Source: a virus
Strand: one strand, 5' to 3'
Length of the DNA stretch: 29,790 nt
Virus genome (UHGV): UHGV-1477313
The position numbers and the translations under genes are program-made. Every line of letters begins with the position of its first letter. Position 1 is the first letter of the stretch. Under the pieces are notes generated by a model. It was given only the letters and a program-made list of their open reading frames with translations. It was not told the origin of the DNA and did not search any database. Below, one piece after another: positions 7,443 through 26,763 of this stretch.

Positions 7443-9917
7443 TTATTGCGGAGTGACATCCTGAGGTCTCCACCAGTATGTCTGGTTAAACTCTTTCTTC
7501 GAACGTTGCTCCATTTTTCGCAAATAGCCTGGTGAAAAATACTCCTGCATCTGGTTAAAGATCATGTGATCGAGAGCCGCCTTCAAGTACCAGAGATTCG
7601 CACCAGGCATCAGGCCTTTCCCCAGCTTAACCAGATCACCACCAGTCTGCTCATTCTTCCCTTCCACAGCATTTAACGGTATGCCCTGAGCAATCTTCAC
7701 TACGTCATCAACCAGACCAGCTACCGGGCCAAGCATCGACGCCAGCGCGCCGCTTCCGTACCTAGTGTGATCTGACAATAAAAAGTCACCGTAAAGGCCA
7801 AGACCACCACCTTTCAGTAGAGCACCAAGCCAAAATTTAGCAGCATCTTCTCCTGTCATCTCGCGAGGATTACGACCAGACGCAAGGTCGTTAAGTTGCT
7901 GCGACAAAGCGCCAAGAATGGTCGTACTGGCAATAAACGTCGCAATATATGCCGCACGCCCACCAGCAGACGGCATCCCCATAGCGCGTGACCAGTGACG
8001 CATAACCACCGAGATAGGGAACGATTTAAACAGGAAAACACTTCTCGTTAATTCACCTTTCCATGTTCCACGCTGAATACCAGAACCGGTTATCAGTTGC
8101 TCACGTGCTCCCGGTGTAATAACAGCCATATCAACTTCTTCAGTTACGGCACCGAGCAGTTTACGCATTGCCTCAAATTTCACGCGTTCAGGCTCACCAA
8201 GATGTTTAACTGCTGAATCAGGGATACGCATAATGCTTTCCGGTGTCAGCATCGTATTATTACCGTTCCCCCAGTCCTCCTGTTGCGCCAGCTTCCATAC
8301 GCTCCAGTCTGTGTCAGTAATCCCTTTGCTTTTCAGGATACGAAAATCAGAGTCATCGAGGCTACGAAGGTCTGGTGTCCGTGACACTACTTCTCCCAGG
8401 CTTCCCATCATGGTTACGCCATAGGCGCGCTTGTGCGCATCTGACCATGCTGTAAGCCCACTGGCACGCATTACCGCCGTTGCCGCCCAACGAGACACTG
8501 ACGGCCCCATATTATCCATCGCCCAGCGGTTAACGCTGCCAAGTAGAGATTCCATCGCCAGACCAGCGCGGCGCGCCCGCGCAAGTTCTGTACGGTTCGT
8601 TGGGTCCATAGCTTCAAGCTGGTTGCGGAATAACTGGTTCATTGGAAGGTTGGTCACCTTCGCAGACAGATACATGGTTCCAAGATCAGAGAACGATGAT
8701 AGCAACGCAGATCCGAGTCTGCTGGCAACCAGCCAGTTGCGGATATTGTCAGACCATCGCGCGATGTGCGGATTCGCTACAGGCTGTGTCTTTCCGGAAA
8801 TAAAGTTGTACAGATTCTCTGTGTTGTTCGCCAGCCGCTCGACTTTACCGGTTTTACTCGGGTTAGCTGTTGCCGTTTCTGCCTTCACCTGATCAAGAAG
8901 AGAGCGGAAAACATGATCGGGGTTTGGGCCATATGTTTCCACCAGTGCAATATCTTTACTGATACCTTCCAGGTGACCGACCATGATTTCCCATAGAGAG
9001 CGATCGCCATAAAGTTGCTGATATTGCAGATAGGAATCTGCATCTTTGAAATGTATCTGTCGTGATGCATTACCACGGTTAGCACGTGCGCCGGAAATTC
9101 GCATTCCGGTATCAGTAAGCTTATTCAGCCCACCAGTAGCGATCGTGTTATAAGCCTCTCCAAGAAATGCAGACAACTCGGCATCGTTCATCAGTTGTCC
9201 ATCGGCTCGGATATAATATTTGCGATCCAGCTTACCTATAACATCGCTAACCCACTTATCCTTTGATACCGCCCCAACCTTTTCCATAGAATGATGTTGA
9301 GGGAACCCCCAGTTTTCGAGATAGCCAATGTCCCCACCAGCATCATTAAACCGGCGGCGCAGTAGATCTGTCACTTCTCTCCACGCCTTAGCACCTTTTC
9401 TTGCTTTAGCATTGCCAGTATTTTGCCCTCGCATTTCATATACCAGGTCACGTACGCCCGCTTCATCTTCAAACAGACCAAAAAAGCGAGGATCAACTGC
9501 TTCGAATGCCTCCTGCAATTGACTCAATGCATAATCACGAGTGGCTTTTGTTCTGGACTCAACAGAGAGGAAATTCGATTTACCGTCTGCATTAAAAGCA
9601 ATAGTACGGTTAAGAGCGCCAAGTTTCCCATCAGCCCCTTGATAGCTATTGATAAATTTATCCAATCTCTGACGTGCGGCTATAGTGAGGGCCACACGAC
9701 GTTTCTTTAATGCCGCTTCTCGCTGTAATTCTTCAGATGCCAATTGTGCTGCACGATATAGCCGCTCTGATTCGGAAAGTTGTCTCCACGACATCGGGTC
9801 ATCACGAGCAATGGAGCGCATATTTCGATAAATGCGGTCTTCAATGCTCTGTATTTCTCGCGCCGTTAACGTGCGCTGCGCCGCCTGCTGGACCGCTTGT
9901 ATACATTCCTGTCTCAT
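7443..9917 (-). CDS. Large virion-associated protein (824 aa), probable internal/ejection protein
   Basis: Long ORF inside the structural operon with an SD before the ATG. Function inferred from position only. Confidence 0.7.
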   Translation of the reverse strand: MRQECIQAVQQAAQRTLTAREIQSIEDRIYRNMRSIARDDPMSWRQLSESERLYRAAQLASEELQREAALKKRRVALTIAARQRLDKFINSYQGADGKLGALNRTIAFNADGKSNFLSVESRTKATRDYALSQLQEAFEAVDPRFFGLFEDEAGVRDLVYEMRGQNTGNAKARKGAKAWREVTDLLRRRFNDAGGDIGYLENWGFPQHHSMEKVGAVSKDKWVSDVIGKLDRKYYIRADGQLMNDAELSAFLGEAYNTIATGGLNKLTDTGMRISGARANRGNASRQIHFKDADSYLQYQQLYGDRSLWEIMVGHLEGISKDIALVETYGPNPDHVFRSLLDQVKAETATANPSKTGKVERLANNTENLYNFISGKTQPVANPHIARWSDNIRNWLVASRLGSALLSSFSDLGTMYLSAKVTNLPMNQLFRNQLEAMDPTNRTELARARRAGLAMESLLGSVNRWAMDNMGPSVSRWAATAVMRASGLTAWSDAHKRAYGVTMMGSLGEVVSRTPDLRSLDDSDFRILKSKGITDTDWSVWKLAQQEDWGNGNNTMLTPESIMRIPDSAVKHLGEPERVKFEAMRKLLGAVTEEVDMAVITPGAREQLITGSGIQRGTWKGELTRSVFLFKSFPISVVMRHWSRAMGMPSAGGRAAYIATFIASTTILGALSQQLNDLASGRNPREMTGEDAAKFWLGALLKGGGLGLYGDFLLSDHTRYGSGALASMLGPVAGLVDDVVKIAQGIPLNAVEGKNEQTGGDLVKLGKGLMPGANLWYLKAALDHMIFNQMQEYFSPGYLRKMEQRSKKEFNQTYWWRPQDVTPQ

Positions 9918-9922
9918 TTAAT

Positions 9923-11725
9923 TTAACCTCTCAAGAAACACGCCACAGCGACATCAAACAGGCTGGAATCCTGTATTGCCTGCTCACTTTCCCTGTTCGC
10001 TTCATCCAGTACTTCACGCGCACTGCGCGATTGTGGATTACCATCATCATCCAGCACGGTGATTATCATGTCCGGAGATTCAAGCAGCGAGTCTTCAGCT
10101 ATACGCAGATCAATATCTCCTGCCGGATCTGCCATCATTTTTTGTTCTGTCTGTTGCAATATCTTACCGGGCTCAAAAGGAGCTACTTCGTCTGGCGTCC
10201 TGACCTCTGCTGTTTTATAGAATGAAACAGCCTGAGCATTAAGTTCACTTTCTGCCTGCTGTCGTCGTGCCAGTTCTGCTCGAGCTTCAAAAAACTGACC
10301 TCCAGGCTCGTGCGGCGCCAACGCGTTACGAGAAAATTCCAGGCGTTCTTGTGCCTGCCGGATTCGTTGGTCAATATCGCGAAGTCTGGCCTGTTTATCT
10401 GATCGAGCACGAGATAAAGCCTTACCGCTACCGGTTGGCTCTTCTGCAAGAATTTGTGCGCGCTGTTCAGTGAGATTTTCAATAATTCGTTGGCTATTAG
10501 CGATTTCAGACTGGTAAACCTGTCTATCGCCACGCGACAAAAGCTGCGCGGCCTGTTCTTCAAGCAACCGATTTTCTATAGCGCGCGCCGTTACTCCATC
10601 ATCTACAGATGACAGAGCCTCATTAACTGCCTGAGACAGCAGACTCTTGCGCCCAGGAATTTCACTGAAAGATGCAGACTCAACAATGCTGGCAACGTCT
10701 ACAGGTCTCCCCTGGCTAACATCAGACATGGCTTTTCGCAGAGCCTGAATGTGCGAATTACGCGAAAGCACGTTGATCGGAACGCCGGGAGCAATATCAA
10801 TTTCAGCATGATGAGCGGCATTCGCCGCCAGTGCAGCATCAATATCAACTGGTGAAAAATTTGGTGTGCTTGTAGACTCGCCGCGAGAGTTAATAAATCT
10901 GCCGACACCACCAAACGCCACCCCAAGAACAGCATCAATAGCAATTGCCTGTCGATCCAACACATCATACTGGTTAGCCATTTCGCTATAGCCACCATCA
11001 CGAAGCGTTTTTGCAGTAAGCCCACGCTGTGCCATACCGAACGCAATATTTGTACCTGCGGCATAGGCAATATCTGGCGTTGCACGTACTGCTGTTGCTG
11101 CGGCGCGTCGCACTGAACTTTCACCCGTCCGCGCAAGCTGAGCCGCCACACCTTCCGCCAGCGCACCACCAGCACGTAACCCGAGGCTCATAGGGATCAG
11201 TGTTCCGGCACCAGCAGTAATACCCTGCACTAATCCCGCTTCCTGCGCCGTCCTGAAATCAACACCCTGTGCTGTCAACCGTTCAAACTCAGAAAAACCC
11301 TGTAGAGAAGTTACCGCCGCAGCACCTCCGACCGGACCACCGAGCGTTGTACCGACAACAGCCTGCCCGCCCATATCGAACAACCCATAAAGGACCTGCC
11401 CGGCGGTTCCGGTTGTCGCGGCATCAGGCGTCAGCCGCTTAACCTGCTGCTCTGCTAGTTTTCTCTGCTCAGCAATGTATGAAACTGAAGTGTCATTGAG
11501 CGAGGTGTTTTCGTTAACAAGCTGAGCAATCGGTGATACGATTTTATCCATCCCTGCCCATAGCAACTGATCTGGCTTTGCCACCAGCCCGGAGTACAAA
11601 CCAGACAATGCCGCTCCTACAGCATTGTCGAAAAAACCAACATCGCTGTTAAAGCCAACTGGATTTGATGCTGCTTCGTCAAGCTGCTGATTCTGGTTTA
11701 CTGGATTAAGGCCAAAGTAACTCAT
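9923..11725 (-). CDS. Internal virion/ejection protein (600 aa, Gly/Ala-rich)
   Basis: Long ORF; ATGA overlap with the upstream gene. Gly/Ala-rich hydrophobic stretches are typical of podovirus ejection proteins. Confidence 0.7.
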   Translation of the reverse strand: MSYFGLNPVNQNQQLDEAASNPVGFNSDVGFFDNAVGAALSGLYSGLVAKPDQLLWAGMDKIVSPIAQLVNENTSLNDTSVSYIAEQRKLAEQQVKRLTPDAATTGTAGQVLYGLFDMGGQAVVGTTLGGPVGGAAAVTSLQGFSEFERLTAQGVDFRTAQEAGLVQGITAGAGTLIPMSLGLRAGGALAEGVAAQLARTGESSVRRAAATAVRATPDIAYAAGTNIAFGMAQRGLTAKTLRDGGYSEMANQYDVLDRQAIAIDAVLGVAFGGVGRFINSRGESTSTPNFSPVDIDAALAANAAHHAEIDIAPGVPINVLSRNSHIQALRKAMSDVSQGRPVDVASIVESASFSEIPGRKSLLSQAVNEALSSVDDGVTARAIENRLLEEQAAQLLSRGDRQVYQSEIANSQRIIENLTEQRAQILAEEPTGSGKALSRARSDKQARLRDIDQRIRQAQERLEFSRNALAPHEPGGQFFEARAELARRQQAESELNAQAVSFYKTAEVRTPDEVAPFEPGKILQQTEQKMMADPAGDIDLRIAEDSLLESPDMIITVLDDDGNPQSRSAREVLDEANRESEQAIQDSSLFDVAVACFLRG

Positions 11726-19039: not shown

Positions 19040-19477
19040 TTAACCAGTTACTTTTGAGCGGATCGGATACGGCGTATTGGCATCAACATCAAGACTGATA
19101 CCAGCAGTGAATTCGCCAGCCGTTAGTGGGCCAGTTGCGACGGAGTAGTTAACACGCAGATATCGCTGAACACCGGCAGGCACCTTTGCAGAAACAACTC
19201 GTTTACCTGCTGTCAGGGCGGTCTTTGCCAGTGCACCACTATCATAAATAGTGGTCCATGAGCTGTTATCCTCACTCGTCTGCAACTGGATGTTTACAGT
19301 TGCATCACCGCTTGCTGCGGCGGCTGTGTTAACCAGCGCCCAAAACTCAAGCGGGTAACCCACGCCGATATCACGACGTTTTCCGTCAATTGGACCGAGA
19401 TCGATTACGTCAGTAGAAGCCGCGGTATCAGTTACCGCCTGTGCTTCGGAGAACATCAACAGTTTGTCGGTGATCAT
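19040..19477 (-). CDS. Putative capsid decoration/stabilisation protein (145 aa)
   Basis: GGAGAAAGAAG SD; immediately downstream of the major capsid gene. Function inferred from position. Confidence 0.6.
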   Translation of the reverse strand: MITDKLLMFSEAQAVTDTAASTDVIDLGPIDGKRRDIGVGYPLEFWALVNTAAAASGDATVNIQLQTSEDNSSWTTIYDSGALAKTALTAGKRVVSAKVPAGVQRYLRVNYSVATGPLTAGEFTAGISLDVDANTPYPIRSKVTG

Positions 19478-19528
19478 CTTCTTTCTCCATTAGTGGGTCT
19501 GTTACGACCCACAGGTTAATAACAGGCG

Positions 19529-20521
19529 TTACACCACGCGGGCTTCTGTTTCCAGAAGCGCATCAGTTTCACGGATTGGTACACCACGGAATGACGTCCA
19601 CCACTCGCCTTCAGTCTCTTTTACGCTAATCGCCAGAGATGTTTTCTCCAGAGACTGCAAATCAAGAGCCTGGCCTACAGTGCGGTTCATGTAGAACACC
19701 GGGCGACCCATGCCACGGTTTGGAATGCGATGCAGTGCTTTAACCATCAACTTCGCAATATTTGCGGCAGAGGAAGGTTCTGAAAGATTGCTGACATCGA
19801 TGTTTGCAATGCGAACAACATAACGCCAGTCACGCAGAGCAAGTCCGTTATCCCATTTGTAATGGGTGCGATAGCCTTCGTACTTGCCGCCATTAGCATC
19901 TTCCAGTGTCACCTGGCCTTTATCTTCCATCTGGATGCCAGCCTTCTGCCCTTTCGGGAAGATGCCATGCACGGTGTTTTCGCCCCACACCACTAACCAG
20001 ATTGAGGTGTTATCTGTACCCGTGCCACCAGCATCAATGATGTTCTGAGCATTACCCGCAGACAGGCTGGAATAGCGGGAGGACAGTCCCATAAACTGCT
20101 GAGGGTTAACGCTGGAATCACCATAAAACAGCGTCTGCGCCATCTGCTGATTCATCGCTTCAATAAATGCGCGGTCTTCAGACAGGCGGAATTCGGCGGT
20201 ATTGCCGTTCAGATCAGCCAGTGACTTATCGACTTCCGCATAGGTTTCCAGCATGCCAACGGAATCGGTTACCTGCACTGTGGTTGATTTGCTTGGCTGT
20301 ACGCCATAGTTCAGCAAACGCCAGGTAGCTGAAGGTAAACCAGAACGAATGGTGGTTCGGTGTCCGGTAGGAAGGTTCCCTTCGACAAAAGGCATATCCT
20401 GAAGGATCGGGTTAGTTTGACCGAGAAGCTCGATAATCTTATCGACTTTCCCGTTTGGATCGACGCGCTTACCCCAGTCAGCCAGCGTTAGCGCAGTTAA
20501 GCCTTTAACAGCCATTGTCAT
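19529..20521 (-). CDS. Major capsid protein
   Basis: 330-aa ORF downstream of the scaffold-like gene; size and position fit an HK97-fold major capsid protein. AGAGGAA SD. Confidence 0.8.
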   Translation of the reverse strand: MTMAVKGLTALTLADWGKRVDPNGKVDKIIELLGQTNPILQDMPFVEGNLPTGHRTTIRSGLPSATWRLLNYGVQPSKSTTVQVTDSVGMLETYAEVDKSLADLNGNTAEFRLSEDRAFIEAMNQQMAQTLFYGDSSVNPQQFMGLSSRYSSLSAGNAQNIIDAGGTGTDNTSIWLVVWGENTVHGIFPKGQKAGIQMEDKGQVTLEDANGGKYEGYRTHYKWDNGLALRDWRYVVRIANIDVSNLSEPSSAANIAKLMVKALHRIPNRGMGRPVFYMNRTVGQALDLQSLEKTSLAISVKETEGEWWTSFRGVPIRETDALLETEARVV

Positions 20522-20529
20522 TTCCTCTT

Positions 20530-21231
20530 TTATTTGCCATAGAGCACTTCGGCCGCACTACGCTGGCCTTCATTACCACCGGTGACCATGCCATCTTCAG
20601 ACATCGCCTTTCCGATTTTCACGAACGTTTTGACCAGATCAGGGTGATTACCCAGCCCGGTGGTGTTCAGATATTCTTTGAGTTCAGGTGTCCCGAACTG
20701 GTCAAGCGCACGCTGTGCGGCGCTAAGGTTAGAAATCAACTTGTCGCCACCGATTTCTTTGTCAGCTTTTACATCCGCAGCCCACTGCTCGGTTGTTTTC
20801 TGCCAGGCTTCTGCCTGGCGCTGCTGAACACCTGCCAGAATCTTCGGATAAGCATCAACCAGCTTTTGCGCTTGCTCGTTGGTCAGGTTAAGTTCTCGCG
20901 CCACCGGCTCGAATTCCTTCAACGCTTCTGTATCCAGCTCTACGCCTTCGGCAGCCTGAAACTCGTACTTCTCCGGCGCACCCTCCGGTTTATCGCCGTC
21001 ATTTTTTTCACCCTGCTTATCGCTTTCAGGCTTTTTGTCATCAGCAGGTTTATCGCCATCAGCAACAGGTTGTGGCTTATCACCTTCCTGTTGTGATGGA
21101 TCACCAACTGGAGCAGGGTTATCACCTGTAGGCGCTGACGGTTCTGACGCAGCCGGAGCTGCTCCACCATCGACTGGTTGCTCATTGCAAAGACGGCGAT
21201 ACAGCAAACGCTCAAATAAATTCATGATCAC
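20530..21231 (-). CDS. Scaffolding-like protein (acidic, low-complexity N-terminal region)
   Basis: 233-aa ORF between portal and capsid; Asp/Glu/Lys/Pro-rich with helical C-terminal part. Confidence 0.65.
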   Translation of the reverse strand: MIMNLFERLLYRRLCNEQPVDGGAAPAASEPSAPTGDNPAPVGDPSQQEGDKPQPVADGDKPADDKKPESDKQGEKNDGDKPEGAPEKYEFQAAEGVELDTEALKEFEPVARELNLTNEQAQKLVDAYPKILAGVQQRQAEAWQKTTEQWAADVKADKEIGGDKLISNLSAAQRALDQFGTPELKEYLNTTGLGNHPDLVKTFVKIGKAMSEDGMVTGGNEGQRSAAEVLYGK

Positions 21232-21524
21232 TCCTGTTCACTGGCCTCTTTGGCCATCTTCAAATACTGTTCAGGGCAATGCGCCATAACGCGCTGAAAC
21301 AGTTCCAGCGCCAGATTGCGTTGCCCCTCATTAAATGCCATTGCCATAGCGTCCATCGGTGAGATAGCGGAAAACACACGGCCTTTCTCCAGCACCGACC
21401 AGACAACGCGACGCCCCTGTTCACTGCTCATGACAAAGCGAATGTCATCAATTTCACGCTGCACCATGTCACGTTGCTTACGGGCGTTTTCTTCTTTCAG
21501 TTGATCGTCTTCGTAATCTGTCAT
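21228..21524 (-). CDS. Hypothetical protein (98 aa) between portal and scaffold
   Basis: ORF with ATGA overlap to the portal stop. Confidence 0.6.
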   Translation of the reverse strand: MTDYEDDQLKEENARKQRDMVQREIDDIRFVMSSEQGRRVVWSVLEKGRVFSAISPMDAMAMAFNEGQRNLALELFQRVMAHCPEQYLKMAKEASEQE

Positions 21525-23200
21525 TGTGATTGCCCACCCTGACCACTAACTGCATTCGCCATAGCTGACAAAACACTCGGATCCGAAGTTTTAGCTTCAC
21601 TTAGCGTCTTGGCACCCTGTGCCGCCGCCATCCCCATCGCCATCATTTGTTGCTGCTGTTGTTGCTGTGCCCGTTGCTGGCGAGCCTGCTCAACCTGTTC
21701 CTGCGGAACAATGACGGTTGGAGACACTCCGGACATATCAGCGAATGCATCGATCGCCTGATCAACGTTGAGTTTGTCGAGAGCTTCTGGTTTCGCTTGC
21801 GCAAGTTGACCAATGAAGTTAACCGTGGACGCCAGACTGGACAGGCCGATAGACTTCTGCGCCTGAGCCATGACGGAAATGTATTCGACCTTCAGGGGCA
21901 TGCCTTCCATCGCGTCAGGCGGTGGCGGCAGCATGTTTTTACGCACCATCATAGAGAAAGCGCGGTCAATGAGAGGATTAAGACATTCGTCGTTCAGACG
22001 CTCCAGAACCGGCCCCAACATCAGAAGTTTTTCTTCTTTCATTTCGATCACCGCTTCAACAGGCATCGAGCGGGTATTGATGTTCTGCAACATCATGAAC
22101 AGATCGACAAAGTAGGCGCTGTTAATGATTTGGCGAGTGTCCTGAATGTCTGCCACCAGATCTGCTGTACTGGGGTTAACCAGATAAGCAGGCCTGAAAC
22201 CATCCTGACCAGTAATCTGATCGATATACGTGATGTCGCCAGGAAGAAGGGAGGCGCGCTGATTCTTGAGGGAAGTCGGAGCAACCATCGGCGGATTGGT
22301 GGCTTTATCAATCAACTGCGACTTGCGCTTCTGGAGAAGCTGCAATGCCTTAACAGGTCCAAGCGCCAGCATACCCGGGCATGATGATCCATAAACATCT
22401 TCGCCGTTAACTTCCCAGCGCGGAGCCATAATTGGAAACTCATCGAATCCGGACTCACGCAACAACTTGTCGTTATCGCCGCCAACCTCGTAATAAACCG
22501 ATTTGAATGGCTTGTTCTTGCTATCCAGCTTCGATGTATCGCGGTCAATGTTCGGGTAAACCGAATGCATCACTTCGATCCACTTCTCGTAGGTGCCGCT
22601 TTCCCACATGCTTTTTACGGATTCGCTGACGTTATTTAGCCCGAACTCCTGAACAAGCTGACGAACAGTCATAGAGAACTTGCGAAAACAGGTGTCAACA
22701 CTGCCACGAGGTGAGTTAGCCAGGTAGTAACTGCCTATCGGGAATGGCATTGTGCGAATGATGTCCTCGTCATCCTCCAGCACTGCCATTGCACCAGTGC
22801 TGTATGTGCCGAGGCTTCCGTATAACTGCGGAAGAGACTGGTAGAGATTCGACTTATTGAACATATCGTTCATGCGGTTCTGCACCGCCTCAAGCCACAA
22901 CTTAACAGGGCCATAATCCATCATTTCAGGATCTGGCGTAGCCAGGCGAAACCACGGACGGGCGGGGCTTGTGATGCCTGACATCATGCCGCTGGCGAGA
23001 GTGCGCGCCGCCATAGTCCCGGTCGAATCAATAATACGTGTATTGCGTCGATCGTTACGGTTGACCTCAGAAGTCAGAAAGCGGGAACCACGCGGGTTAA
23101 TGTAATCACTCAACTCGCGCCAGTGCGGCTCGAACGACTGACGCTCGCTTTCAAGTTGTGCGAACTGTTTGTTCAATCGCTCTTTAGTTGTTTCCGCCAT
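21521..23200 (-). CDS. Portal protein
   Basis: 559-aa ORF immediately downstream of terminase in the packaging module; GGAG SD; Gln-rich C-terminus. Confidence 0.8.
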   Translation of the reverse strand: MAETTKERLNKQFAQLESERQSFEPHWRELSDYINPRGSRFLTSEVNRNDRRNTRIIDSTGTMAARTLASGMMSGITSPARPWFRLATPDPEMMDYGPVKLWLEAVQNRMNDMFNKSNLYQSLPQLYGSLGTYSTGAMAVLEDDEDIIRTMPFPIGSYYLANSPRGSVDTCFRKFSMTVRQLVQEFGLNNVSESVKSMWESGTYEKWIEVMHSVYPNIDRDTSKLDSKNKPFKSVYYEVGGDNDKLLRESGFDEFPIMAPRWEVNGEDVYGSSCPGMLALGPVKALQLLQKRKSQLIDKATNPPMVAPTSLKNQRASLLPGDITYIDQITGQDGFRPAYLVNPSTADLVADIQDTRQIINSAYFVDLFMMLQNINTRSMPVEAVIEMKEEKLLMLGPVLERLNDECLNPLIDRAFSMMVRKNMLPPPPDAMEGMPLKVEYISVMAQAQKSIGLSSLASTVNFIGQLAQAKPEALDKLNVDQAIDAFADMSGVSPTVIVPQEQVEQARQQRAQQQQQQQMMAMGMAAAQGAKTLSEAKTSDPSVLSAMANAVSGQGGQSQ

Positions 23201-23214
23201 TTCAATGACTCCGG

Positions 23215-23421
23215 TTACTGACCAAGCAGCGTTTTACCGCTGGTATTAGCGGTTGATGTGTCGCCCTGAGAACCGGTAAGCAGCGTAGAACTACGACCAG
23301 CAGCAGCGCGACGGCGACGAGTTTCTTCGTCGCGGGCATCAACAACGGCGGCATCCTGCTCCTGTGGTGCTGCCTGAACTTCTGGTGTTGCAGGCACTGA
23401 TGGTGAGCTACCCATGCACAT
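23215..23421 (-). CDS. Small hypothetical protein (68 aa) upstream of portal
   Basis: ORF whose translation initiation region (CGGAGTCATTGATATG) nearly duplicates the portal one (CGGAGTCATTGAAATG). A different-frame ORF (23202..23441) overlaps it, so the call is uncertain. Confidence 0.35.
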   Translation of the reverse strand: MCMGSSPSVPATPEVQAAPQEQDAAVVDARDEETRRRRAAAGRSSTLLTGSQGDTSTANTSGKTLLGQ

Positions 23422-23511
23422 ATCAATGACTCCGTACGCAATTAAATTATTACCAATTTAACCACATATGATTTATTTATCGTAGGTTGTTGACATTTAA
23501 CGCACGAATTA

Positions 23512-23526
23512 TTACCTTCAAGGTAA
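23512..23526. promoter_or_regulatory. Operator-like perfect dyad TTACC-ttcaa-GGTAA next to a TTGACA -35-like hexamer (23490..23495)
   Basis: Read directly; positioned at the start of the plus-strand tRNA island. Confidence 0.45.
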
Positions 23527-23847
23527 ATATAGGGTTCATTCCGGTTATTAACCTGACTGGCTTGTCGTTAAATTGAACAGGTGGAGTGAGCTTTTATTTT
23601 GAGTAGTACGGCGTATGGCACATGCGCCGATAGCGGTCTGGGTACGTTTAAGGGGCACCCTCCCTTGCTCGGGCAAACGAACCAGGTAGCCGGAATGTGC
23701 AAGTCGAGCGGTTTTATTCCGCGCACGGGGATTCACCATCCCGGCGATTCGGTGTGACGCCTCGGAAGAGACGAGGTACAACGATGAGAGCATTTATGGA
23801 GCCGCGACAAAGTGTGGCGCCTTAACAGGCTAAGTGCTCTCAGCGTT

Positions 23848-23924
23848 GTGGCATTAGCTCAGTTGGACAGAGCAATCGCCTTCTAAGCGGTTGGTCGCAG
23901 GTTCGAATCCTGCATGCCACGCCA
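23848..23924 (+). tRNA. tRNA-Arg (anticodon UCU), argU-like
   Basis: Manual cloverleaf: acceptor GTGGCAT/ATGCCAC, D-stem GCTC/GAGC, anticodon stem ATCGC/GCGGT with loop CTTCTAA (anticodon TCT), T-arm GCAGG-TTCGAAT-CCTGC, discriminator G plus encoded CCA. Core closely resembles E. coli argU. Confidence 0.9.
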
Positions 23925-23967
23925 GAATCACGCCTAAGGACCGTGATGCCAGAAGTTCCAGGTGCTT

Positions 23968-24009
23968 GGCGGTGATGGTTTCCCTTGAAGAACTATCACC
24001 GCCCTTTTT
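23968..24009 (+). terminator. Intrinsic terminator downstream of the tRNA (GGCGGTGAT...ATCACCGCC then CTTTTT)
   Basis: 9-bp perfect stem with T-run, read directly. Confidence 0.6.
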
Positions 24010-24087
24010 ACAGCAGGACGCCATTGCGATGACTTCATGCTGTAAACCAGTACAGCCACGGAAGGCATAACTCATTGCTTCCAGTTC

Positions 24088-24111
24088 GCCCGGTTCGCCG
24101 GGCATTTTTTT
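24088..24111 (+). terminator. Hairpin GCCCGG-TTCG-CCGGGC plus 7 T, immediately 5' of the RBS of the 24123 gene (terminator or attenuator)
   Basis: Read directly; UUCG tetraloop, U-tract ends 1 nt before the AAGGTGAG SD. Confidence 0.45.
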
Positions 24112-24122
24112 AAGGTGAGATT

Positions 24123-24494
24123 ATGAACGACCAGCAAATCGAAAAAGAAATCGTTGAGAAAGGCAAAACGGCACCGCGCGTTACGCCAGACCATATCGAA
24201 GGCATTATTGCTCAGGAGGCATATTTCACAGCAGAAGATGGTGCCTTTGGCAAAGCCATAAAAGCGAAACATACTGGCGGAGAGGTAAACTACCAGCCGC
24301 ACGAATCACTTTCTCTGCTGACGTTCTGCGTCCTGGTGCTGCGCAACGGCTTCACCGTCACAGGAGAGAGCGCCTGTGCAAGCCCGGAAAACTTTGATGC
24401 GGAAATTGGTCGGAAGATTGCCCGGCAGAATGCTGTAAACAAAATCTGGATGCTTGAAGGTTACTTACTGAAGCAGAAGTTAAGCGAGCAATAA
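24123..24494 (+). CDS. Small conserved phage protein (123 aa), hypothetical
   Basis: AAGGTGAG SD. The translation resembles a family of roughly 120-aa proteins I recall from enterobacterial phages (possibly the N4 gp49 / Sf6 gp66-like family); the family name is uncertain. Confidence 0.65.
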   Translation: MNDQQIEKEIVEKGKTAPRVTPDHIEGIIAQEAYFTAEDGAFGKAIKAKHTGGEVNYQPHESLSLLTFCVLVLRNGFTVTGESACASPENFDAEIGRKIARQNAVNKIWMLEGYLLKQKLSEQ

Positions 24495-24498
24495 CACC

Positions 24499-24510
24499 GT
24501 GACATGTCAC
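24499..24510. repeat. 12-bp perfect palindrome GTGACATGTCAC, copy 2 of 3
   Basis: Exact match; lies 5 nt after the stop of the 24123..24494 gene, followed by a weak hairpin and T-rich tract (24517..24541). Confidence 0.6.
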
Positions 24511-24584
24511 AAACAGCCAGCCGATGAGCTGGATTTGTTTTATCCTCACCAGAGGATATCTCCGTCATTATCCCCGCTAACGGA

Positions 24585-26060
24585 TTAAGCATAGGGATCG
24601 TACTCGGTAAGCGCCTTGCCTTGCTGGTTCTGCTGCCCGGGAAGTCGCAGGCGCTTCGACACCGGGAAAGCAAACGTCAGCAGTAGCGCATCGCCTTTAC
24701 CCGGCGAACGCCCAAGCCGCTCCTTGATATCTTCCTTCGGTTCGATAACGATTTTACCGTCCACGCGAACTTTGTACTCTGCCGCCGACAGGTCGTCCGC
24801 TGTTTCCTGGTCATCCAGCATCCCGCCGAGCCTCAGCCATGTCTTGCATGCATTGAACATCTCCCCGCGCTTATTGAGCATCTGCGGGTCAGTAGACGCG
24901 CCGCCGAACGGAACAAGTTGCCATGTACGACCCCAGCCGTCACCGATTGACTTCAGACCGGTACCGTAGCCGAAGTCGATGAACACCGCGTCAGCCTGAT
25001 ACTGGTCTTCAAAGTCAGCGATACGCTTTGCCATAATCAGATCGTCAGTGGTCTTGTTGCCGGTCCACAGCACCTTACTGTGCAGCCCCTGCCGCAGGTA
25101 TATCACCGCGTCATCAACGCCTGAGTATGCCGGGTCAACGCCGATTATCACCGGAGCATGTGCAACCTGCGCAGCGGTGACCACCCGTTTCATTGCCTCG
25201 TCAGTAAGACCGGTAGGGATAAACTGCAATTCAGATGCATCAGGGAATATGCCGCGCACACGGATTTTAACGAAGTCGCTGTCTTCCCCGTAGTCATCAA
25301 CCCATTTCTGCAACTGCTGTTTGTTGGTGCCTTCCACCGTCCGGCTGTCAATCTGCGCAGTTTTCCAGCGGTGTTTATATTTGCGGAAACATTCGCGGAA
25401 ACGTCCGGTATTACGCGTCGGGTTTCCGAACGCCACCCAGATAATCTCAGTGTCTTCGTCCGTTAGCGCACCCTCGGCAACTTCCCACACCAGATCCGCA
25501 ATGTTCGACGCTTCATCGAATACCACGATGATGCGTTTGCGCTCGTTGTGTAGTCCGGCGAATGCCTCAGTGTTGTGCTCAGACCAGGGTATTGCGTCAG
25601 CCCGCCACCGCTTGTCGTGCCCAGGGTCATTGCTGTACATCGCGGTAGCGGTACAGGTAAACCAGTCTTTCGTGATAGCAAGGTTCGACCACTTGATAAT
25701 TTCCGGCCAGGTCTTCGTTCGTAGCTGGTTGTCGGTGTTGGCAGTCACCACGACCTTACAATCCTCGCAAGTGGACATGCCCCAGTTGATCAGCATTGAG
25801 ATGAATGCTGATTTACCAATACCGTGACCCGAAGCGCGTGCCAGCATAAGCGGCTGATAGCGCGCCTCTGGATTCTGCAGGTGATCACGTATCTCTCGGA
25901 ACGCATCGGCCTGCCACTGACGTGGGCCGGTAGCATGTGCCAGTTCAGTCCCCTCTTCCCCCCACGGGAACGCATAGAGGGCATAGCCAAGCGGATCGTG
26001 AGTGAACCCTGCAATATCCTCGATCAACTGCTCTTCAGGAGATAACGCTGTATCTGTCAC
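24585..26060 (-). CDS. Terminase large subunit
   Basis: 491-aa ORF with Walker A-like ARASGHGIGKS and a nuclease-like C-terminal half. GTG start overlaps the small-terminase stop (GTGA). Confidence 0.85.
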   Translation of the reverse strand: MTDTALSPEEQLIEDIAGFTHDPLGYALYAFPWGEEGTELAHATGPRQWQADAFREIRDHLQNPEARYQPLMLARASGHGIGKSAFISMLINWGMSTCEDCKVVVTANTDNQLRTKTWPEIIKWSNLAITKDWFTCTATAMYSNDPGHDKRWRADAIPWSEHNTEAFAGLHNERKRIIVVFDEASNIADLVWEVAEGALTDEDTEIIWVAFGNPTRNTGRFRECFRKYKHRWKTAQIDSRTVEGTNKQQLQKWVDDYGEDSDFVKIRVRGIFPDASELQFIPTGLTDEAMKRVVTAAQVAHAPVIIGVDPAYSGVDDAVIYLRQGLHSKVLWTGNKTTDDLIMAKRIADFEDQYQADAVFIDFGYGTGLKSIGDGWGRTWQLVPFGGASTDPQMLNKRGEMFNACKTWLRLGGMLDDQETADDLSAAEYKVRVDGKIVIEPKEDIKERLGRSPGKGDALLLTFAFPVSKRLRLPGQQNQQGKALTEYDPYA

Positions 26061-26653
26061 TGATTACCATCCTGACGTTCTTTGAGTCGCTTCCTGGCTG
26101 CTGCTATGCGATCAGCAATTGTCACATTCACATTAACATCCAGACGTTCTTTGAACGCGTTGACATCAACATGCTTACCAATCAGCTCAAGGTTCTTCAC
26201 CTTGTCAGGCCATTTAATTTTTTTGAGGATTGTCTCTATCGAATCCTCGTTCATGTTCATGATGGTCGATGACAGATCAAAGCCGCTAAGCGTAGTGCGC
26301 CAGATTTTCGGCCACTCGCGGATTGGTTTAAGGCTCCCATCGTCGTTGAGGATGTCGATCACGTCCATCTGGTCGATCTCCACCAGGCGCATGAGAACGT
26401 AATCAGCACTGACGCGCATTCGTTTGTTGCGCTCCTCCATCAACTCAGCAATCCGTTTTTGAATGCGTTCATCGCGCATCATGACACTGGCTTTAACTGC
26501 CGCTGTATTTGGGGAGAATCCTGCGTTAATCGCTGCCTGAGTCTGGTTTTCAGGCGTTTTGATGTATGACTGGCAATAAGCCTCCTGCATTGCTGTTAGT
26601 GGCTTAAATTGCGTTGATTTGCGTTTATAGGTTTTAGGTTCAGCAGGCATCAT
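26057..26653 (-). CDS. Terminase small subunit
   Basis: Region KPLTAMQEAYCQSYIKTPENQTQAAINAGFSPNTAAVKASVMMRDERIQKRI looks like small-terminase DNA-binding domains. Likely start is ATG 26653 (MMPAEPK); the ORF track's TTG extension to 26731 is probably not translated. Confidence 0.75.
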   Translation of the reverse strand: MMPAEPKTYKRKSTQFKPLTAMQEAYCQSYIKTPENQTQAAINAGFSPNTAAVKASVMMRDERIQKRIAELMEERNKRMRVSADYVLMRLVEIDQMDVIDILNDDGSLKPIREWPKIWRTTLSGFDLSSTIMNMNEDSIETILKKIKWPDKVKNLELIGKHVDVNAFKERLDVNVNVTIADRIAAARKRLKERQDGNQ

Positions 26654-26670
26654 AACCACCGTGGTAATAG

Positions 26671-26685
26671 TTACCGTTGTGGTAA
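26671..26685. promoter_or_regulatory. Operator-like dyad TTACC-gttgt-GGTAA inside direct repeats GTGGTAATAGT (26661..26671 and 26679..26689), just upstream of the terS start
   Basis: Read directly. Confidence 0.4.
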
Positions 26686-26763
26686 TAGTACCATGCAAAA
26701 TAAAGCCGCCATAGTTGGCGGCAGTATTCAAAACCCGTCAAATTCATCATGCATAATCTACTC

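Follow-up and report, generated by a model that had tools for sequence, protein, structure and literature searches.

A structured leader RNA, candidate for a new phage RNA family, and its modular cargo slot in the tRNA-Arg(UCU) island of a phiV10-type Uetakevirus

Known leader RNAs and the tRNA-Arg island

GOLLD and ROOL are large structured non-coding phage RNAs that are often found next to tRNA genes. Other phage RNAs, the put elements, make RNA polymerase resistant to termination through its beta' zinc-binding domain. The put RNAs of phage HK022 are cis-acting processive antiterminators of ~70 nucleotides (nt) with two stems, present in two copies, putL and putR (PMC9378689). According to the references given in PMC5499578, C4 of P1/P7 and CI of P4 are regulatory RNAs which RNase P cuts from early leaders. 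MALAT1-mascRNA and the plant mitochondrial t-elements, the latter cited in the same paper, are tRNA-like processing signals. The leaders of ribosomal RNA (rrn) operons combine boxB-boxA-boxC antitermination elements with a leader-trailer helix (PMC10250234). Here we analysed the UHGV virus genome UHGV-1477313, a stretch of 29,790 nt referred to as the window, in which a tRNA-Arg(UCU) gene and the untranslated leader ahead of it lie between the large terminase (TerL) and portal genes. The results showed that this leader contains a domain of ~180 nt, in which five helices or more and one pseudoknot covary. We regard the leader as a candidate for a new family of structured phage RNAs; its design includes a modular slot for the RNA that follows it (the cargo).

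Compared with these systems, the leader resembles put in being a structured, seemingly protein-independent RNA just after a repressor-controlled early promoter and ahead of terminators; unlike put, its domain is ~180 nt long, pseudoknotted and single-copy. Homology to put was rejected, as R1, our covariance model of the domain, gave a best match of 4.9 bits in HK022 24000-34000 with filters off. As with C4 and CI, a small RNA lies inside an untranslated, repressor-controlled leader, and by analogy its release by RNase P is probable; however, the island has no sequence or Rfam relation to C4, and the cargo of the window is a real tRNA. The rrn leaders share with the cassette a hairpin, a UGCUCU-like stretch, a GU-rich junction and a stable RNA enclosed by a GUUGUGG...CCACAAC pairing, whereas the boxA-like sequence of the cassette is base-paired and not conserved, which makes this a likeness of design and not homology. 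GOLLD and ROOL likewise adjoin tRNAs, but the present leader has no Rfam match, occurs in Enterobacteriaceae hosts, has a far smaller domain and possesses a defined cargo junction. In mascRNA and the t-elements, as in the cassette, a tRNA or tRNA-like fold abuts another RNA, so that one RNase P cut would define both ends; those systems are eukaryotic or organellar, and processing of the cassette is inferred. The tRNA itself does not differ in kind from the argU-like tRNA-Arg(UCU) genes of phages, being the same gene in the same place.

A sequence-only reading of the window had described the island as inserted and unusual for this phage architecture, a view that the comparison with relatives overturned. 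The window belongs to a phiV10-type Uetakevirus, and the 1.4 kb from 23200 to 24600 was colinear, at 96.2% identity, in phiV10 and in the O157 typing phages 9 and 10. Partial alignments of the island were obtained with TL-2011b, phiv142-3, SPN1S, SPN9TCW and others, and the annotations of O157 typing phages 9 and 10, phiv142-3, SPN9TCW and SPC32H include a tRNA-Arg. A prophage of E. coli ETEC1747 carries a 100% identical copy, in which the Prokaryotic Genome Annotation Pipeline (PGAP) lists portal, hypothetical protein, tRNA-Arg and Gp49 family protein and leaves the leader unannotated. Since the same island is present in related phages, an outcome that the earlier reading had itself named as refuting, it is not an unusual insertion; among phiV10-type Uetakeviruses it belongs to the standard genome.

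Structure, distribution and cargos of the leader RNA

The structure of the domain was read from the sequences and then tested on an alignment (A2) of 26 divergent representatives. It opens with hairpin Ha (23609-23629), which has an invariant GGCAC loop, and a long arm Hb (23638-23641/23682-23685), in which the outer pairs alternate between CUG/CAG, CCG/CGG and CCAC/GUGG. A closing helix Hg (23703-23706/23755-23758) surrounds hairpin Hd (23728-23731/23739-23742; loop yUCACCA), and hairpin He (23760-23764/23772-23776) follows as a covarying 5-bp stem with a 7-nt GAAGAGA loop (CCUCG-GAAGAGA-CGAGG). Two pseudoknots were proposed. PK1 (23618-23621/23697-23700) would pair GCAC of the Ha loop with GUGC, and PK2 (23734-23737/23751-23754) pairs the Hd loop with GGUG and covaries from CACC:GGUG to AACC:GGUU (CG:23 and AU:3 among the representatives).

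Standard pairs filled 94.8% of the alignment cells, versus 24-41% when the partners were slid by 1-3 columns. Changes on both sides were found at 13 pairs (66 cells), and the observed covariation score was matched by none of 500 shuffles. The frequent G-U pairs (e.g. UG:24, GU:15) suggest that the selected molecule is the RNA of the plus strand. Long single-stranded stretches were invariant across hosts. The suspicion, raised from the sequence of the window, that the leader is a processed or structured RNA was thus well founded as regards structure. Two other pairings were rejected. RNAalifold proposed GCACAU:AUGUGC with UCG:CGG in place of Ha, but Ha is supported by pairs that change from G-C to C-G and from G-C to A-U, and these speak against the alternative. 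The minimum free energy (MFE) fold joined GAUUCGGUGUG over a long range to the 3' end of the tRNA and its trailer, a pairing that by eye was not conserved in the homologues and competes with PK2.

The distribution of the leader was examined by sensitive BLAST with the leader alone as query. Positions 23608-23847 matched unannotated intergenic DNA, at ~80% identity, in phages unrelated to Uetakevirus. The P1 copy lies at 71023-71191 between trnI and ban, and P7, D6, SJ46 and RCS47 have copies too; lambdoid copies were found in mEp460, cdtI and Stx2c converting phages, and further copies in HK97-like mEp390, Klebsiella phage SopranoGao and BUCT709. Among the phages with a copy is one of which the label gives Stenotrophomonas as host. 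Of 5426 complete E. coli genomes, 1837 carried the element, some copies being chromosomal and others on P1-like plasmids; annotation was nearly always lacking. It was also present in at least 120 IMG/VR contigs. The 24 species-representative loci came from Kosakonia, Phytobacter, Citrobacter, Kluyvera, Klebsiella, Erwinia, Buttiauxella and other genera. R1 found exactly one copy per phage. Full-length copies scored 122-152 bits in the searched loci and the window copy 149 bits (E=1.5e-41); no second copy was found in the window or on the pR side of mEp460.

Searches of Rfam 15, at the gathering score for the whole window and at E<=10 for 23400-24130, left the leader unmatched, including by GOLLD, ROOL, T-box, riboswitch, ribozyme, RNase P, 6S and tmRNA families. 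Full-text searches of the literature outside subscription journals, which also used literal sequence strings, turned up no account of this RNA, and neither a P1 transcriptome preprint nor the vB_EcoP_ZX5 paper mentions or discusses it. Two outlying contigs deserve comment. A 1753-bp contig labelled as a Bacillota metagenome-assembled genome (L149) holds the enterobacterial domain at full score (149 bits), probably because phage DNA was binned wrongly, while an Oscillospiraceae locus (L137) is a chance 19-mer match of 13.7 bits.

In the lambdoid phages, the HK97-like phages and BUCT709 the domain lies just downstream of a cI-like repressor gene and in the same orientation, which is the position of a pL leader. 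In mEp390, the repressor gene is followed by a T-run terminator-like hairpin (seen by eye, unlisted by the scan), then by TTGACA-18-TACATT, and then by the domain. One or two intrinsic terminators were located downstream of the domain in 22 of 33 representative contexts, mostly before the first open reading frame (ORF). In P1 the domain lies within the C1-controlled ban operon, has neither junction hairpin nor cargo, and runs directly into the ban mRNA. In SopranoGao, the domain begins almost at the predicted transcription start.

The junction between the domain and its cargo follows a strict rule. After He an invariant ACAAC leads into the junction hairpin Hf, of which the base is always ACAAC:GUUGU. 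In the MFE fold of the window, ACAAC at 23778-23782 pairs with GUUGU at 23845-23849 and so takes in tRNA nt +1 and +2. The Hf stem sequence differs greatly between phages and its pairing is kept, with -17.4 kcal/mol for the cognate inner duplexes of 28 distinct Hf against -10.9 for random ones. The two bases after GUUGU are always GG; hence every cargo begins with GUGG.

Among 147 domain copies, 30 are followed by tRNA-Arg(UCU) and 89 lack a canonical tRNA; a further 26, all P1-like, have tRNA-Ile2 upstream, and in the remaining two a tRNA, called tRNA-Ile(aat) by ARAGORN, lies ~530 nt downstream. The tRNA-free junctions lead into about two dozen RNAs of 60-200 nt, closed by GUGG(UGA)...(UCA)CCAC and followed by AAC. 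Many of these cargos are tRNA-like, with a 7-bp acceptor-like stem, a variable insert, and D-like and T-like hairpins. The D-like loop GCUGAU is complementary to the T-like loop AUCAGC, the T-like hairpin stacks on the acceptor strand, and some cargos have a genuine GGUUCGAnUCC T-arm. The scaffold cargo of two Uetakevirus-like IMG/VR loci (L045 and L063) bears a 40-nt arm with 87.5% identity to E. coli 16S rRNA, which we take to be the helix 11 region. Behind non-tRNA cargos, a second ACAAC gives rise to mutually exclusive helices. Rfam found no match for the cargos of 7 other loci, and a search for antisense targets of the mEp460 cargo within 18 kb returned chance-level matches of 10-11 nt only.

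Four loci (L045, L134, L138 and L145) share the Uetakevirus-like context of the window and carry a non-tRNA cargo in the place of the tRNA. As context-identical loci carry other cargos, the tRNA sits in an exchangeable slot. The number of cargos also varies, from none in P1 through one in the window to three in SopranoGao, and up to three tandem He-ACAAC-Hf-cargo units stand behind a single Ha-Hd domain (SopranoGao, L140, L152). Tandem units, two or three in number, were noted at SopranoGao (L127) 1437-2000, L140, L152 and L129.

The cargo of the window is a regular tRNA, as the sequence-only reading had recognised. ARAGORN reported it as the single tRNA of the window, and the Rfam tRNA model (RF00005) scored 70 bits, above its gathering score of 29. 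The anticodon UCU lies in the loop CUUCUAA, the D-loop reads AGUUGGACA, the 3' end is GCCA, and the identity elements A20 and C35 and the 3' CCA are all present. The tRNA-Arg at the argU position of K-12 has the same anticodon and 84.5% identity over nt 7-77. The alignment to host argU thus begins only at nt 7, and the phage acceptor stem (23848-23854) follows the rule of the cassette, opening with GUGG like the non-tRNA cargos, which suggests that the junction sequence is under a constraint of its own. In the large ORFs of the window AGA occurs at 6.5 per 1000 codons, ~3-fold above the E. coli average of ~2 per 1000. These codons are clustered in the tail/injection genes (1541-4489 and 7443-11725) and in two right-end genes within 27641-29442.

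Proposed role of the cassette and competing explanations

The TTGACA hexamer with an operator dyad, reported earlier from the sequence, was found at 23490-23495, one base away from its implied position. The dyad TTACCTTcAAGGTAA occurs four times in the window (4594, 4974, 6020 and 23512) against 0.08 copies expected by chance. By alignment, epsilon15 shares the TTGACA-17-TACCTT arrangement, and its annotation places a repressor site at the position homologous to the 23512-23526 dyad. Directly after the dyad at 4974-4988 come isrK (5025-5100), a C4 antisense RNA (5125-5210) and an ORF for the anti-repressor Ant (5258-5953); the Rfam C4 family (RF01695) matched there and nowhere in the island. 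With the dyad repeated and one copy ahead of isrK-C4-Ant, it behaves as the real operator of the phage repressor. Together, isrK, C4 and Ant make up an immunity module of the P1 immI type in a Uetakevirus, and it shares its operator with the tRNA island. The copies at 4594-4608 and 6020-6034 accompany that at 4974-4988. A sigma-54 (-24/-12) reading of TGGCAC was rejected, as the -12 element is absent from the sequence.

We tentatively favour a scheme in which the island is a cassette for stable RNA, transcribed early as a single non-coding unit with a structured RNA at the head of the operon. On loss of the repressor, host RNA polymerase would transcribe the unit. Hf would at first mask tRNA nt +1 and +2, and the cloverleaf would form as soon as the 3' acceptor strand is available, with ACAAC:GUUGU being displaced by that strand; non-tRNA cargos would bring their own second ACAAC copy. 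A cut by RNase P at U-1|G+1 would then free the tRNA and leave a leader RNA ending in Hf. Such a release is inferred from tRNA maturation, from the C4/CI precedents and from the acceptor-plus-T-stem-like scaffolds of the cargos. The released tRNA-Arg could provide extra AGA decoding for the AGA-rich tail/injection genes.

The part played by Ha-Hd in this scheme is a somewhat less confident proposal. One Ha-Hd serves zero to three cargos of any identity and stands at the head of the unit, which argues for an action at the level of the operon. By analogy with put or an rrn leader, Ha-Hd might act in cis on the whole operon, shielding the untranslated transcript and the polymerase from premature termination or decay; this is possible but falls short of being probable. 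Shielded polymerases would make the cargo RNAs, and some would pass T1 and T2 into the Gp49 gene. It is doubtful, though worth stating, that leader and junction together represent a new, widespread class of phage RNA cassette, in which the head licenses interchangeable tRNA or tRNA-like effectors, expressed from a promoter among the earliest to act after infection or induction. Under that reading, effectors with variable arms, one of them 16S-rRNA-like, could be decoys, anti-defence RNAs or regulators, and tRNA-Arg would be one cargo among many and not chiefly a codon supplement.

Several observations weigh against the operon-head scheme. In P1, the domain is found 2.3 kb inside the ban operon and no terminator separates it from ban, a placement that fits a role as a 5' untranslated region or in trans as well as it fits antitermination. 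The unit of the window ends convergently against TerL after one gene, and a processive antiterminator would gain little from that. The proposed promoter is weak, as the TTGACA/TACCTT pair at 23490-23518 fell below the threshold of a simple promoter scan because its -10 hexamer fits just 3 of 6 positions. Within the domain, PK1 and several proposed contacts are invariant and therefore beyond the reach of covariation, and one pair of Hg is an A.C mismatch in 17 of 26 sequences. In epsilon15, positions 2796-2872 (L004) retain of the domain just Ha with half of Hb, joined to the T1-T2 spacer, with no tRNA and an R1 remnant of 34 bits; this phage has deleted the cassette, which is thus dispensable for growth. 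Finally, the sequence-only reading had proposed comparing the AGA/AGG usage of the late genes with that of the host. AGA codons are concentrated in the tail/injection genes, whereas the head, portal and terminase genes (19040-26731) have next to none, which makes the tRNA only partly needed and a codon-supplement role plausible in part only.

Other explanations of the leader were weighed against the same evidence. Unlikely on its own merits, and nearly as likely as our guess of cis antitermination, is that the leader itself is the product, a stable trans-acting non-coding RNA of ~240-320 nt that ends in Hf, is released by RNase P punctuation and targets a conserved host factor, for example RNA polymerase, Rho, Hfq/ProQ, the ribosome or a defence protein. 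The tRNA or tRNA-like element would then be mainly a processing signal, and in P1 processing of tRNA-Ile would act on the 5' side of the leader. The single-stranded stretches that are invariant across hosts fit this explanation, as do the lack of a conserved protein-gene neighbour of the domain across the compared phage loci, the tRNA on the 5' flank of the P1 domain, Hf as a protective 3' hairpin, and the precedents of RNase P-processed phage leaders, C4 and P4 CI, cited in PMC5499578. It accords poorly with P1, where the domain runs into ban mRNA with no Hf or cargo to set a 3' end, and with the later cargo units, which repeat He and Hf and not Ha-Hd. That repetition is what one would expect if the leader were a mere maturation platform, i.e., a co-transcriptional folding clamp and an entry site for RNase P, RNase III or RNase E that secures the 5' ends and the stability of the cargo and has no effect on the polymerase. 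We consider this improbable, even though the Hf base pairs cargo nt +1 and +2, the second ACAAC behind non-tRNA cargos creates mutually exclusive helices, all cargos open with GUGG, including a tRNA-Arg that aligns to the host only from nt 7, and the epsilon15 annotators predicted an RNase III site here. A platform explains the He/ACAAC/Hf repeat per cargo, but it leaves unexplained both the lone Ha-Hd for zero to three cargos and the retention of Ha-Hd before P1 ban.

From cargo maturation through a riboswitch and a nut site to a coding region, the explanations become progressively less likely. The aptamer-like size and pseudoknotted complexity of the domain, the two competing pairings around GUUGUGG and the position of T2 against the Shine-Dalgarno (SD) sequence would suit a sensor of a metabolite, second messenger or uncharged tRNA that switches between ACAAC:GUUGU and the cargo-closing pairing, or acts on T1/T2, in line with the attenuation suggested by the sequence-only reading. 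Such a sensor is quite improbable, as the downstream sequence differs wholly between P1 (ban mRNA), the window (Hf and cargo) and mEp390 (other modules), which leaves no conserved expression platform; moreover, no Rfam riboswitch matched, and T1 and T2 lie 120-260 nt past the domain with the tRNA in between. We regard as very improbable that the island is an ordinary codon-supplementing tRNA moron with a leader conserved by recent descent and not by function. The argU-like tRNA and the AGA excess concentrated in tail genes favour that view, whereas the compensatory changes, the covarying pseudoknot and ~80% identity across unrelated phage families indicate structural selection, and 89 of the 147 copies have no tRNA at all. 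Marginally less credible still is a lambda-type nut site, with He as boxB and the UGCUCU stretch as boxA for an N-like protein. In mEp390, BUCT709 and an E. whittamii prophage, hairpins like He do appear repeatedly within the pL leader, and UGCUCUU(U) is boxA-like; but that stretch is the 3' strand of the covarying Hf and is swapped for unrelated sequence in several units, there is no second site at pR, and in mEp460 no N is annotated next to the domain and the first downstream gene lacks an arginine-rich N-like motif. No use of N is known for P1 and Uetakeviruses. That the leader encodes a small protein is scarcely credible. The 81-aa minus-strand ORF 23548..23793 exists, and some records annotate coding sequences (CDSs) over homologous DNA; however, that ORF has no Pfam match, no frame is open in all 26 representatives, lengths differ regardless of multiples of 3, and the substitutions are compensatory at the level of RNA.

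Should the leader prove functional, one in three sequenced E. coli genomes, together with P1, P7, Stx2c phages and phiV10, would hold an unannotated structured RNA at the start of an early operon. Early phage gene expression would thereby gain a further RNA component, whether through transcript protection, antitermination or host manipulation. Several 'hypothetical protein' calls over leader DNA would then probably be wrong, and the cassette could offer a natural scaffold for expressing structured RNAs.

Island layout, terminators and minor observations

The features of the island and of the flanking genes are collected in the table. For annotation, we recommend that the island be treated as a promoter-operator-leader RNA-tRNA-terminator unit that is normal for the phage family.

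Table. Features of the tRNA-Arg island and its neighbours in the window (coordinates in nt).
Feature	Coordinates	Strand	Evidence or remark
Portal	21521..23200	minus	Pfam Head-tail_con, 1.6e-187
Small gp3-like ORF	23215..23421	minus	
Candidate sigma-70 promoter	23490..23518	plus	-35 TTGACA 23490-23495, 17-nt spacer, -10 TACCTT 23513-23518
Operator dyad TTACCTTcAAGGTAA	23512..23526		Perfect dyad; overlaps -10 hexamer and start site
Lineage-specific 5' leader segment	23527..23606	plus	Has motif UUGUCGUUAAAU..GGUGGAGUGAGCU; Uetakevirus-like loci only
Pseudoknotted RNA domain	23607..23784	plus	Model R1, covariation
Junction hairpin Hf	23777..23849	plus	MFE fold, pairing kept across phages
tRNA-Arg(UCU), encoded CCA	23848..23924	plus	ARAGORN, Rfam
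3' hairpin AUCACG..CGUGAU after cargo	23927..23947	plus	Kept behind tRNA and non-tRNA cargos, Uetakevirus-like loci
Intrinsic terminator T1	23968..24009	plus	Hairpin 23968-24003, 14-bp stem plus U5; kept in related loci
T1-T2 spacer	24010..24087	plus	Hairpin ~24007-24046, GGAAG..CUUCC; conserved
Intrinsic terminator T2	24088..24111	plus	GCCCGG uucg CCGGGC (24088-24103) plus U7
Gp49 / Sf6 gp66 family gene, 123 aa	24123..24494	plus	Pfam Phage_gp49_66, PF13876, 8.6e-35
Bidirectional terminator-like hairpin, island versus TerL 3' end	24517..24532		phiV10 annotates a rho-independent terminator here
TerL	24585..26060	minus	PHROG terminase large subunit, 1e-52
TerS (small terminase)	26057..26731	minus	Pfam-level protein family search

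Much of what had been read from the letters alone was upheld by these assignments. Gene calls placed the island on the plus strand, antisense to the packaging operon and between TerL and portal. The stretch of about 320 nt said to lack a convincing ORF is the leader 23527-23847, which is 321 nt long and has no ORF kept in homologues. The two intrinsic terminators and the small conserved gene after the tRNA were likewise found; the product of this gene belongs to the N4 Gp49 / Sf6 gp66 family and is named 'Gp49 family protein' by PGAP. Pfam and PDB sequence searches gave no match for TerL, of which the label is backed by the phiV10 and epsilon15 annotation.

The island region contains 6 terminator-like sites against 1.8 expected. 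The U-tract of T2 ends at 24111 and the SD AAGGTGAG begins at 24112, in agreement with the earlier description of a hairpin directly before the SD, and T2 abuts the SD of the next gene in every related locus. The T2 stem covaries from GCCCGG/CCGGGC to GCCCAC/GUGGGC in relatives. No promoter-like site was detected between T1 and T2 in the promoter scan. Control by attenuation or antitermination at T2, as suggested in the sequence-only reading, is possible. The weak RyhB-like and sau-6072-like Rfam matches at 24035-24111 were rejected as terminator look-alikes. The T1-T2 segment (24010-24111, ~100 nt, with its own terminator) is kept even in the cassette-deleted epsilon15, and it could, from its sequence, be a separate small RNA.

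The motif UUGUCGUUAAAU...GG(U/C)GGAGUG(A/C)GCU (window 23563-23595) stands before Ha in Uetakevirus leaders, and within the Hf apices of HK97-like leaders (L126, L128 and L130). Three annotated genes are probable mis-annotations. The CDS PhiV10p04 of phiV10 (NC_007804, 3656-3907) lies opposite the tRNA, and gp37 of mEp460 (2443-2811) and WCS67766 of BUCT709 (1323-1613) lie opposite the RNA domain.

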